Shown: positions 12,859 through 16,135 of the stretch, piece after piece
Layout of the letters: every line of letters begins with the position of its first letter
How positions within the stretch are numbered: the stretch's first letter is position 1
DNA from: Opitutales bacterium
GTDB lineage: Bacteria; Verrucomicrobiota; Verrucomicrobiia; Opitutales; Coraliomargaritaceae
DNA: 32,000 nt
NCBI GenBank assembly: GCA_049606355.1
Contig: JBMYVL010000005.1
Span: 1 to 32,000, forward strand
Direction: 5' to 3'
Program-made: the position numbers and the translations under genes
The notes under the pieces: model-generated
Database searches by the model: none
The model's input: only the letters and a program-made list of their open reading frames with translations
What the model was told of the DNA's origin: nothing

Positions 12859-13911
12859 CTACTCGGCTGCATCGGAGGCGCTGTCGCGTGCTGCGGTCGT
12901 TTCTGCGACCTCAATCGTTGGCGCCTGCGCCGGACGGGGGCGCGTCTTTACGGAAAACTCCAGCTCCGCATCAGCCCGCTTGATCTTGATGCTGGTAAAC
13001 TGATTCGCGCGGGTAAAAAAGACCGCGGTTGGGACATCTGCGACCGTATGAATCGGGCGATCACCGATGGAGACCAAATGATCGCCTTCGCGCAAGCCGG
13101 CCTGCTTGGCGGGCGCCGAATCGACTAATTTTGTCAGGTAAACCGAATTCGTGTTATCCGCATTCAACTTAGCTGCGACTTCGAAGCCCATCCAACTGTG
13201 AATAATCCGACCCGAGAACAGCAAATCATCGCGCACCCGCGCCAATGCATCGGGTGGCAGGCAGTAGGACCCGCCCAAATCAGGAATCGAAGCCACCGTC
13301 ATTCCAATGAAGCGACCATTCACATCCAAGACCGGGCAACCACCACGACCTGCATCCACATCGAGTGAAGTACGTAGATAAGTCGTCGGAAATACCTTAT
13401 TGCCGAGCTTCTTGTCCCGACCGGTAATGATACCCATCGAAGGCGATGCCTCAAAATCCAGCGGACAGGAAATGGCTACCGCAATCGATCCCAGTTCCGG
13501 GGATGGCACGCTCGTATCAATCGGAATGATGGAAAAGTCTTCCGGCAATTCGATCACCCGCAGCACCGATACATTTGTTAGACGGTCATGACCAACCGCT
13601 TCCGCAGCATACGGACGCCCCTGGTACTCGACCCAGACACGGTCCGCCCCGGCTGCGCGGCTGGCACTGACGAGCACATGGCCCTCTTGGCTGACGAAAA
13701 ATCCCGAACCCACGCGCAACATTACCTGCGGCTTGCCATCGGCATTGTCCGGACCGCGGTAGGCAGCCTTCACGCGTACAATCGCATCCTTATTCTCCTC
13801 AAAAACTTCAACCAGACGCTGCTGTAAGGCCAGTGCATCGGCCGAACTGGCCGCCACAGGCACAGCGACCAGAGCCAAGAGGGAAAAAATCCAACCACTG
13901 CGGATGCTCAT
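12859..13911 (-). CDS. HtrA/DegS-like trypsin-fold protein with C-terminal PDZ domain; catalytic triad apparently absent
   Basis: It has a signal peptide, a GSGFFVS... trypsin-fold core and a PDZ-like segment (AKQAGLREGDHLVSIGDRPI). By hand alignment to DegP/DegS the catalytic positions read S (for His), N (for Asp) and G (for Ser). The first two lie in GHVLVSASRA and TNVSVL. The third is in GRGGCP, which replaces GNSGGP. I prefer the ATG at 13911 over the TTG at 13923. Confidence 0.75.
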   Translation of the reverse strand: MSIRSGWIFSLLALVAVPVAASSADALALQQRLVEVFEENKDAIVRVKAAYRGPDNADGKPQVMLRVGSGFFVSQEGHVLVSASRAAGADRVWVEYQGRPYAAEAVGHDRLTNVSVLRVIELPEDFSIIPIDTSVPSPELGSIAVAISCPLDFEASPSMGIITGRDKKLGNKVFPTTYLRTSLDVDAGRGGCPVLDVNGRFIGMTVASIPDLGGSYCLPPDALARVRDDLLFSGRIIHSWMGFEVAAKLNADNTNSVYLTKLVDSAPAKQAGLREGDHLVSIGDRPIHTVADVPTAVFFTRANQFTSIKIKRADAELEFSVKTRPRPAQAPTIEVAETTAARDSASDAAE

Positions 13912-13926
13912 CGCGCTACGCAAACC

Positions 13927-14484
13927 CTAGAAAACCAGGCTAGCCATACCCGTCTGCCCGAAGGCCGCCCGAGCTAAAGCAGAGTCGGCGGAGTAATCGG
14001 CCGTATCGTTGACGGCTACTTGAATCACATCCATGCCAAAATCACGCTCATAGCCTGCATCTTGCGCCACGCTCAGTGCATCGCTCACAAAAATCGCATC
14101 AATCTGATAATCGGCAGCATCGGTAACCTCCTGAGGTAAATCTGCGAGCGTTAAAGCGTCCTGCTGTGCTGCAGATGCAAGCACCGTGCCTGCCGCGCGG
14201 TCGGAGAACTGGAGTGTGCCCAACAGCGCCGGCCGAACCGCCAACACGGTCGCCACCAGAGCCGCTGTTGCCAGCGCAGTCGCCTGAGGCAGTCGCCCAC
14301 TGCAGCCCCGCCACAGCTGTAAATACCAGGGCTCTTTCTTAACCAGCGTCTGTAGCATGCGCTGATGCAATTCACGATCGAACTGATCCCAAAAAGCGCT
14401 GTCCGGCTTTTCCGAGCGCTTGAGGCGCAGCAGATCTTCCACATTGATTTCGTTCGGGTCCGCTGGATTCGACTTCGGCATCAT
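13927..14484 (-). CDS. Putative membrane-anchored anti-sigma factor
   Basis: It lies 32 nt downstream of the ECF sigma gene. It has a short cytoplasmic N-terminal region, one TM helix (ATALATAALVATVLAV) and an extracytoplasmic C-terminal region. No HxxxCxxC zinc motif is present. The call rests on position and topology. Confidence 0.5.
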   Translation of the reverse strand: MMPKSNPADPNEINVEDLLRLKRSEKPDSAFWDQFDRELHQRMLQTLVKKEPWYLQLWRGCSGRLPQATALATAALVATVLAVRPALLGTLQFSDRAAGTVLASAAQQDALTLADLPQEVTDAADYQIDAIFVSDALSVAQDAGYERDFGMDVIQVAVNDTADYSADSALARAAFGQTGMASLVF

Positions 14485-14516: not shown

Positions 14517-15149
14517 CTAGCGGAGATAGTCCTTAAGTTCCGCTTGCAGTTGTTGTTTCGCGTAGTGGAGTCGAGAGCGCACCGTACCCACGGAAGTTTG
14601 GGTAATTTCGGCGATTTCGGCATGCTCAAGCCCTTCGATTTCATGTAAAATAACGACTGTGCGATGTTTAAGAGACAGCTTTTGTAAAGATTCGTTCAAT
14701 TTTTCCTGCAATTCTCGGACCAATACGCCTTTTTCAGTCCGATTTTTTGCCGTCAAACGCTCAATGATCTCAGCAGTCGCCACTTCTTCATTGATGGTCT
14801 CGTAATTAATAAAGCGCCGACGACTGTTCTTTTTCAGAAAGCTCATCGTCGTGTTGATGCCAATGCGATACAACCAGGTATAGAAAGCTGATTTGCCACG
14901 GAAACGCCCGATCGCCTGAAAGGCCTTAATGAAGGTCTCCTGCGTCAGATCGGAGGCATCTTCGCGGTTGCCGGTCATATTATACAGCACCGAAAAAATG
15001 TGCTCGCGGTACTTTTGCACCAGGGCATCAAACGCACCCACTTGACCGGCCTGAACTTTTTGAACAACGATCCAATCCTTGTCGCGTTCGGACAAAGGTG
15101 CGTCCTTCGCCGGCGCGAAGGCTTCGGAAACTGAGCTGGTTGTTGCCAT
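14517..15149 (-). CDS. RNA polymerase ECF-type sigma-70 factor
   Basis: Region 2 (YREHIFSVLYNMTGNREDASDLTQETFIKAF, FYTWLYRIGIN) and region 4 (EGLEHAEIAEITQTSVGTVRSRLHYAK) are present, with no region 3. The ATG at 15149 is preceded by AGGGG; the longest ORF uses a TTG at 15167. Confidence 0.88.
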   Translation of the reverse strand: MATTSSVSEAFAPAKDAPLSERDKDWIVVQKVQAGQVGAFDALVQKYREHIFSVLYNMTGNREDASDLTQETFIKAFQAIGRFRGKSAFYTWLYRIGINTTMSFLKKNSRRRFINYETINEEVATAEIIERLTAKNRTEKGVLVRELQEKLNESLQKLSLKHRTVVILHEIEGLEHAEIAEITQTSVGTVRSRLHYAKQQLQAELKDYLR

Positions 15150-15291: not shown

Positions 15292-15777
15292 CTAAAGAAT
15301 GGGCGCGGCTAACTTCCACCGCAATTCACAGGGCCCGAACTGCCCCAAATTCGGAATGGGGCGCCAGTCCAAACAAATGAGCCCGCAGGTGCCTAAATGA
15401 ATACGCGTGCGGTAACGCTCACCGCTCAGCAGTAGCGACGCCAACAACTCTAAGTTCGGATTATGCCCGATGAGCACCACATCGCGATCCAAACCTGCCA
15501 AATCTGCCAGCAAGGGCTCCGGGTCGGCCTCGGGCACCAGTGCCGCACACACCTGCGTCGATTCAATGCTGCCGCCCCAAGCCTCCAATAAGCCCTCCAT
15601 CGTCTCTCGGGTACGTTGCAGCGGGCTGCGCCAGATGTGGGCGGGAGTGAATTCCTCCTTATCTCGCAAAAAGTGGCCCAAGCGCCGGACCTGCTGTTGA
15701 CCTGCAGTCGAGAGCGCTCGGTCGGCGTCGGGGAACCCAGGCACCGCTTTGGCATGGCGCAGTAAATAAACTCGCAT
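15292..15777 (-). CDS. sixA: Histidine phosphatase family protein, SixA-like phosphohistidine phosphatase
   Basis: The ATG at 15777 gives MRVYLLRHAKA (RHG-type motif). SPLQRTRET and a downstream GHNP motif are also present. Length is about 161 aa. Confidence 0.7.
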   Translation of the reverse strand: MRVYLLRHAKAVPGFPDADRALSTAGQQQVRRLGHFLRDKEEFTPAHIWRSPLQRTRETMEGLLEAWGGSIESTQVCAALVPEADPEPLLADLAGLDRDVVLIGHNPNLELLASLLLSGERYRTRIHLGTCGLICLDWRPIPNLGQFGPCELRWKLAAPIL

Positions 15778-15825
15778 GCTTGAAGTGAAGCAAGCGGACG
15801 GCCCAAGCTCGACATAAAAACCCAC

Positions 15826-15904: not shown

Positions 15905-15931
15905 TTAGACGGAGGAAGCGGACAGACGTTC
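15905..15931 (-). promoter_or_regulatory. ECF-sigma-type promoter-like motif, copy A
   Basis: The minus strand reads TTCGAACGT-ctgtccgcttcctc-CGTCTAAGT. GAAC corresponds to plus 15928-15931, the spacer is 16 nt, and CGTCTA corresponds to plus 15906-15911. An A-rich tract lies upstream. Confidence 0.45.
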
Positions 15932-16108: not shown

Positions 16109-16135
16109 ATAGACGGAGAACTGGGCCTAACGTTC
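16109..16135 (-). promoter_or_regulatory. ECF-sigma-type promoter-like motif, copy B
   Basis: The minus strand reads TTTGAACGT-taggcccagttctc-CGTCTATGT. GAAC corresponds to plus 16132-16135, the spacer is 16 nt, and CGTCTA corresponds to plus 16110-16115. An A-rich tract lies upstream. Confidence 0.45.

Follow-up and report, generated by a model that had tools for sequence, protein, structure and literature searches.

A triad-less HtrA-fold protein encoded with an ECF sigma/anti-sigma pair in Verrucomicrobiota is a candidate periplasmic partner of the anti-sigma factor

The last gene of an ECF sigma/anti-sigma operon in a marine Opitutales bacterium encodes a protein with the fold of the HtrA proteases (family S1C) in which none of the three catalytic-triad residues is present. 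On balance, we favor a role for this catalytically dead protein as a periplasmic partner of the co-encoded sigma/anti-sigma pair that would bind the C-terminal tail of the anti-sigma factor and act as a shield or a competitive sensor. Judged from its sequence, the protein lacks the triad residues, and no alternative nucleophile or base is conserved in the family; it is predicted to be exported and to carry an intact-looking PDZ peptide groove. The window, by which we mean the whole 32,000-nt stretch of contig JBMYVL010000005.1 that was analyzed, contains the genes of the sigma factor, a membrane protein, and the triad-less HtrA consecutively on the minus strand, in a string that converges on gcvT. 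Features are listed in Table 1.

Table 1. Positions in the window of the operon genes, protein features, and upstream motif.
Feature	Position	Strand	Details
Triad-less HtrA-like protein gene	12859..13911	(-)	350 aa; stop included in coordinates; ATG start
Sec-type signal peptide of the triad-less HtrA			N-terminus; MSIRSGWIFSLLALVAVPVAASSA
Chymotrypsin-fold (protease-like) domain	13207..13782	(-)	Residues 44-235; from alignments to solved HtrA structures
Ser84 codon	13660-13662	(-)	AGC
Asn113 codon	13573-13575	(-)	AAT
Gly190 codon	13342-13344	(-)	GGT
Cys192 codon	13336-13338	(-)	TGC
PDZ domain	12937..13206	(-)	Residues 236-325; from Pfam PDZ_2, PDZ, and PDZ_6 and predicted secondary structure
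PDZ carboxylate-binding loop	13186-13194	(-)	W240-M-G242-F
PDZ groove helix			D292-V-P-T-A296-V-F298-F
Candidate anti-sigma factor	13927..14484	(-)	185 aa; single-pass membrane protein
C-terminal tail of the anti-sigma candidate	13930..13944	(-)	A-S-L-V-F-COOH; proposed PDZ ligand
ECF (RpoE-like) sigma factor	14517..15149	(-)	ATG at 15149; ORF open from 15167
Motif GAACGT-N14-CGTCTA, two sites	15906-15931 and 16110-16135	(-)	Upstream of the operon, in its orientation

The first-pass annotation, made from the DNA letters, had described the product as a secreted trypsin-fold plus PDZ protein of 350 amino acids. This description holds: the ORF is real, and it is matched above the Pfam cut-offs by Trypsin_2 (52.2 bits against a cut-off of 27.6, residues 68-204) and PDZ_2 (43.3 bits against 27, residues 252-323). 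With an alternative TTG start, the ORF would occupy 12859..13923 (-). As read from the sequence, a hydrophobic core followed by A-S-S-A gives the N-terminus the look of a cleavable Sec signal. Superposition on DegS and DegP had been suggested as a check of the fold. The AlphaFold2 model, whose pLDDT was 81.6 for the protein alone and exceeded 90 for the HtrA part when a deeper alignment was used, matches the folds of DegP, DegS, DegQ, AlgW, and MucD with Foldseek TM-scores of 0.62-0.72. At residue 345 (12877-12879 (-)), near the disordered C-terminus, the window encodes Ala (...ARDSASDAAE), while the public cluster representative P0001 has Ser (...ARDSSSDAAE).

The residues at the triad positions were assigned from phmmer alignments with solved HtrA structures, namely, a DegP-like protease (22kg), MucD (8k2y), and HhoA (5b6l). 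The His position is occupied by Ser84 ('vlvsaSra' opposite 'ILTNNHVV'), the Asp position by Asn113 ('ltNvsvl' opposite 'RSDVAVL'), and the Ser position by Gly190 ('agrGgCp' opposite 'PGN(S/A)GGP'); Cys192 takes the place of the second Gly after the nucleophile position of the GNSGGP motif. The three substitutions that the first-pass annotation had read from a hand alignment (His to Ser, Asp to Asn, and Ser to Gly) were thus reproduced, and the Pfam profiles with which it had proposed to verify them confirmed the Trypsin_2 and PDZ assignments, with the pairwise alignments placing Ser84, Asn113, and Gly190 at the triad positions. Of the features that define HtrA proteases (MEROPS S1C), the chymotrypsin fold and a C-terminal PDZ domain with a carboxylate-binding loop are present and the His-Asp-Ser triad is absent. 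The protein therefore appears to be an HtrA homologue rather than a functional protease member of the family.

The substitutions are conserved. Among 120 homologues that are 60-100% identical to the protein, Ser84 and Asn113 are present in all, and Gly190 and Cys192 in 118 each, so that a survey of orthologues at 60% identity or above, advised at the outset, bears out the Ser/Asn/Gly state; since the substitutions are fixed in 120 homologues, they are no sequencing accident. The loss of the triad is likewise fixed in 79 syntenic orthologues. The best 150 cluster representatives from a search of 1.84 billion proteins (132 clusters below E 1e-30) are also without the triad; their Asp position is mostly Asn or Gly and their Ser position is variable, and only one of them, P0188, keeps both His and Asp, with Gly at its Ser position. 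Among 91 sigma-linked members from across Verrucomicrobiota, none has His or a nucleophilic Ser at the triad positions. Invariant residues in this set are limited to G70, P157, R180, G191, G203, P219, G234, and G242, and none of the invariant positions in the 91 proteins is a Ser, Cys, His, or Thr. At the PDZ residues W240, G242, D292, A296, F298, and R312, there is little or no variation. Conservation is among the highest in the protein for the strands and loops that surround the dead active site, and the counterparts of the HtrA activation loops LD, L1, L2, and L3 are well conserved. Overall, these patterns indicate that the triad-less state is maintained by selection and is not a product of decay. 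In a phylogenetic tree, 58 triad-less rows were split from 7 active rows by one branch with 100% support, which fits a single old loss of the triad, the active sample being small.

The triad-less HtrA is closely linked to the sigma/anti-sigma pair. The sigma factor is matched by Pfam Sigma70_r2 and Sigma70_r4_2 and scores 157 bits with the RpoE model TIGR02939, under its 236-bit cut-off. The order ECF sigma factor, membrane protein, triad-less HtrA was found in 78 of 80 Opitutales loci, with the other two interrupted by contig ends, and a candidate anti-sigma gene lies between the sigma and HtrA genes in 79 of the 80. One verrucomicrobial operon with 68% identity is located on a contig (L025, CAXQRK010000022.1) filed under a 'Polaribacter sp.' MAG; the contig is probably mis-binned.

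We also sampled 201 Verrucomicrobiota genomes evenly across the phylum. A match at E <1e-25 was present in 39 of them, and 29 loci were inspected. A sigma gene was located upstream at 23 loci, and each of the 23 proteins is triad-less; at the 6 loci that have no sigma gene, all 6 proteins carry His-Asp-Ser. In these 29 loci, triad loss and sigma linkage therefore separate perfectly. The four genomes of genus g2, which belongs to the same family as the source of the window (99-100% complete), have neither an orthologue of the sigma factor nor a triad-less HtrA; the best match to the sigma factor is at 28-29% identity, and that to the HtrA is a DegP-type paralogue. Genome G147, from a congener, keeps the sigma orthologue (69% identity) and has no triad-less HtrA after the middle gene. 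Its middle protein (L118, G147:C4, 2191-2562) is cut to 123 amino acids and ends in RWLV, without an aromatic tail. The module appears to have been partly lost in nature here; in this single case, the tail and its presumed reader disappeared together. Taken together, the distribution indicates that the triad-less HtrA is inherited and lost along with the sigma and anti-sigma genes.

In the middle protein, a conserved cytoplasmic N-terminus (residues 16-53) is joined by one membrane helix (about residues 68-83) to a periplasmic part that is poorly conserved and predicted to be disordered (AlphaFold2 pLDDT of 30-44). Searches of Pfam, NCBIfam, and PDB with the single sequence gave no credible match to an anti-sigma family, and class I anti-sigma domains (RseA_N and zf-HC2) were not detected. 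When 49 members of the middle-protein family were scanned singly, only scattered sub-threshold Pfam matches appeared (best E 0.011), and a profile of the family had no credible match in PDB. Based on its position, topology, and conserved cytoplasmic N-terminus, we infer that the middle protein is the anti-sigma factor.

At 78 of 79 loci, the middle protein terminates in F or Y (LVY in 33, LVF in 7, and LAF, FAF, LTF, and others in the rest). By comparison, an aromatic residue closes only 3% of the remaining ORFs of 200 amino acids or more in those loci. An F/Y end is likewise seen at all 23 sigma-linked loci of the phylum sample, where HtrA identity falls as low as 27%, while none of the 5 upstream ORFs found at active, unlinked HtrAs has one. 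Despite this constant F/Y end, the periplasmic domain is just 19-52% identical among 49 aligned family members. These observations indicate that the aromatic C-terminus of the membrane protein is under selection. Anecdotally, the PDZ loop reads W-x-G-L instead of W-x-G-F in two separate clades whose tails end in A/T-F, while three other tails with a small second-last residue keep G-F. An independent-contrasts test of tail-PDZ co-variation had no power because there were only 4 well-supported F/Y switches.

To model the tail together with the HtrA, AlphaFold2 was run on an in-frame read-through of the anti-sigma periplasmic part, the TAG codon, and the HtrA, using an alignment of 20 naturally in-frame paired orthologues and 56 HtrA-only rows. 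The tail did not dock in this fusion, and residues 1-98, tail included, had pLDDT values of 30-44. The model therefore lends no support to binding, but since the tail lacks a free carboxylate in the fusion, it is no fair test either. The anti-sigma and HtrA ORFs lie in one frame in the window, parted by a single stop (TAG; 13924-13929 (-)), as they do in 20 of 77 related loci; the shared frame is probably not meaningful, the chance expectation being ~1 in 3.

The genome (1.76 Mb, 99.96% complete) encodes several candidate proteases for the anti-sigma factor. Two ordinary HtrAs have intact triads (TNHHVV/TDVAVL/GNSGGA and TNAHVV/CDLAVL/GNSGGP); they are encoded elsewhere and are ~28-30% identical to the triad-less protein. 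There is also an RseP homologue (250 bits) and one S41 (Prc) protease. No protein in the genome matches RseB (PF03888) above the cut-off of 22.3, the best score being 19.8 bits at a locus elsewhere.

Upstream of the operon, the motif GAACGT-N14-CGTCTA occurs at exactly two exact sites in the whole genome, each with a terminator-like hairpin downstream. An autoregulatory promoter directly before the sigma gene was considered and rejected: the motif is absent there and is found only at the two sites further upstream. Therefore, the operon could be autoregulated by read-through from these sites. A gene for a SixA-like histidine phosphatase (15292-15825 (-); Pfam His_Phos_1, E 1.4e-9) follows the motif sites and precedes the sigma gene by 125 nt; it may be on the same transcript as the sigma operon.

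How could a protease fold that does not cut serve a sigma/anti-sigma pair? PDZ domains of the HtrA proteins DegS, AlgW, and DegP bind free hydrophobic or aromatic C-termini (PMC8545111). In the role that we favor, the anti-sigma factor would be held at its free aromatic C-terminus (A-S-L-V-F/Y-COOH) by the PDZ domain of the triad-less HtrA, and some of its disordered periplasmic segment may in addition occupy the dead substrate cleft. The anti-sigma factor would thereby be shielded from trimming by the active periplasmic proteases, that is, the two HtrAs and the S41/Prc enzyme, and consequently from the RseP-type site-2 protease as well. Prc is known to degrade MucA variants whose C-termini are exposed (bioRxiv 10.1101/2024.05.28.596254). 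The body of a DegS-derived protein would in this way fill the role of RseB or MucB. RseB and MucB are known to shield the periplasmic domain of the anti-sigma factor. The C-termini of unassembled outer-membrane proteins likewise end in an aromatic residue. In the most speculative step, these C-termini could displace the anti-sigma tail from the PDZ domain by competition, whereupon degradation of the anti-sigma factor would release the sigma factor. As a complete scheme, in which a dead DegS holds an OMP-like decoy tail, outer-membrane proteins displace it, the proteases and RseP follow, and the module serves non-proteolytic envelope-stress sensing throughout Verrucomicrobiota from an ancient single origin in an active HtrA, the proposal is tentative, and we consider it possible rather than probable.

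The first-pass annotation had proposed a non-proteolytic role (PDZ-based sensor, RseB-like shield, or adaptor for another protease) for a paralogue occupying the same genomic position as DegS. Triad loss, the signature of selection, and linkage to the sigma/anti-sigma pair all speak for such a role. The positional part of the argument has to be given up: since degS lies outside the rpoE operon in E. coli, where the third position belongs to rseB, the two genes do not share a position.

The linkage and the tail can also be read in the opposite direction, with the triad-less HtrA as an adaptor or activator that passes the tail-captured anti-sigma factor to an active protease and so promotes sigma activation. 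Mixed trimers with a DegP/DegQ-type paralogue, or recruitment of Prc, could provide the route. The same linkage and tail evidence would be expected here, the conserved counterparts of the activation loops would have a use, and suitable partners exist in the two active HtrAs and the S41 protease. We nevertheless regard an adaptor as unlikely: nothing supports a hetero-oligomer, and the active paralogues are distant in sequence and encoded elsewhere. We know of no HtrA that acts as such an adaptor in sigma signaling.

A lower probability still is given to a general holdase or chaperone function in the periplasm. The protein would then be a mere member of the sigma regulon that does not contact the anti-sigma factor specifically, and another PDZ protease would read the tail. 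Both degP and mucD are members of the sigma-E and AlgU regulons, respectively, and protease-dead DegP (S210A) retains chaperone activity. The undocked tail of the fusion model would agree with this explanation, as would the fact that Xanthomonas and Stenotrophomonas carry mucD at the equivalent place in their operon (PMC4229105). However, a general chaperone does not account for the perfect association of triad loss, sigma linkage, and F/Y tail in the phylum sample, for the loss of the tail together with the HtrA in G147, or for the high conservation of the PDZ groove, and strict adjacency down to 27% identity is unexpected for a mere regulon member. The aromatic tail could nonetheless be read by the PDZ domain of an active HtrA, Prc, or RseP instead.

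It is highly improbable that the protein still works as a hydrolase through a non-canonical set of residues, such as Cys192 together with His78 or His108 in a subclade. Cys192, His78, His108, and Asp109 are nearly invariant in the Coraliomargarita/Lentimonas-type subclade, but Cys192 aligns two residues beyond the nucleophile position, as the doubt voiced about this cysteine in the first-pass annotation had anticipated. Deeper orthologues that keep the operon have Ser, Ala, or Gly in its stead, and it is therefore not a conserved alternative nucleophile. Cys149, Cys192, and Cys217 do not strictly co-vary and were rejected as family-wide candidates, and the 91 members share no invariant Ser, Cys, His, or Thr.

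In the textbook view, envelope stress is sensed through the regulated proteolysis of anti-sigma factors, which DegS or AlgW carries out. The present family is large and old, and it has a DegS-like component that appears unable to cut and is yet strictly retained beside the sigma and anti-sigma genes. With the putative ligand built into the anti-sigma factor itself, the arrangement suggests a logic of competition or shielding instead of allosteric activation of a protease, and the PDZ domain and the five-residue tail form a directly testable pair. In public databases, such proteins are named 'S1C family serine protease', 'serine protease Do', or 'DegQ'; as statements of activity, these names are almost certainly wrong for the triad-less family. 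A triad-less HtrA in an ECF operon was not described in the papers covered by our full-text literature searches or in the ECF reclassification paper (PMC7826278).

In the sigma-E system of E. coli, RpoE is controlled by RseA and RseB, with DegS as the site-1 and RseP as the site-2 protease. The Pseudomonas counterpart consists of AlgU, MucA, and MucB with AlgW and MucE (PMC8545111). As in these systems, the operon described here encodes, in this order, an RpoE-like ECF sigma factor, a membrane protein with a single pass, and a periplasmic regulator; the third protein, like DegS and AlgW, consists of a protease fold with one PDZ domain, an RseP homologue is present, and aromatic C-terminal tails are apparently used in signaling (YxF of outer-membrane proteins and WVF of MucE). 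Unlike DegS, the protein has no triad and no N-terminal membrane anchor and is encoded within the sigma operon. Its scores with the DegS equivalog models are 85.5 bits for TIGR02038 (cut-off 422.95) and 71.8 for NF008147 (cut-off 408), and all HtrA-type NCBIfam models match it far under their cut-offs. Also unlike sigma-E and AlgU, the aromatic tail is located on the anti-sigma factor itself, which matches no RseA/MucA family, and an RseB/MucB homologue was not found in the genome. By function, the nearest slot for the triad-less HtrA would be that of rseB/mucB; the resemblance is functional only, since the protein matches the Trypsin_2 and PDZ families and not PF03888.

Among known operons, the layout comes closest to that of rpoE-rseA-mucD in Xanthomonas campestris and Stenotrophomonas maltophilia (PMC4229105), in which the sigma and anti-sigma genes are likewise followed by a gene of the HtrA family. 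MucD (8k2y) is among the best solved-structure matches to the triad-less protein, and the operon position is the same; MucD, however, is a working DegP-type enzyme that has His-Asp-Ser and a pair of PDZ domains, while the protein studied here has no triad and one PDZ domain. A bacterial trypsin/HtrA fold that has lost catalysis and has been put to another use is known from MamO, an HtrA-family pseudoprotease of magnetotactic bacteria that binds transition metals through a di-histidine in biomineralization (PMC4794232). Unlike MamO, the triad-less HtrA has no conserved histidine among 91 members and hence no such di-histidine site, and it is tied to a sigma/anti-sigma pair.
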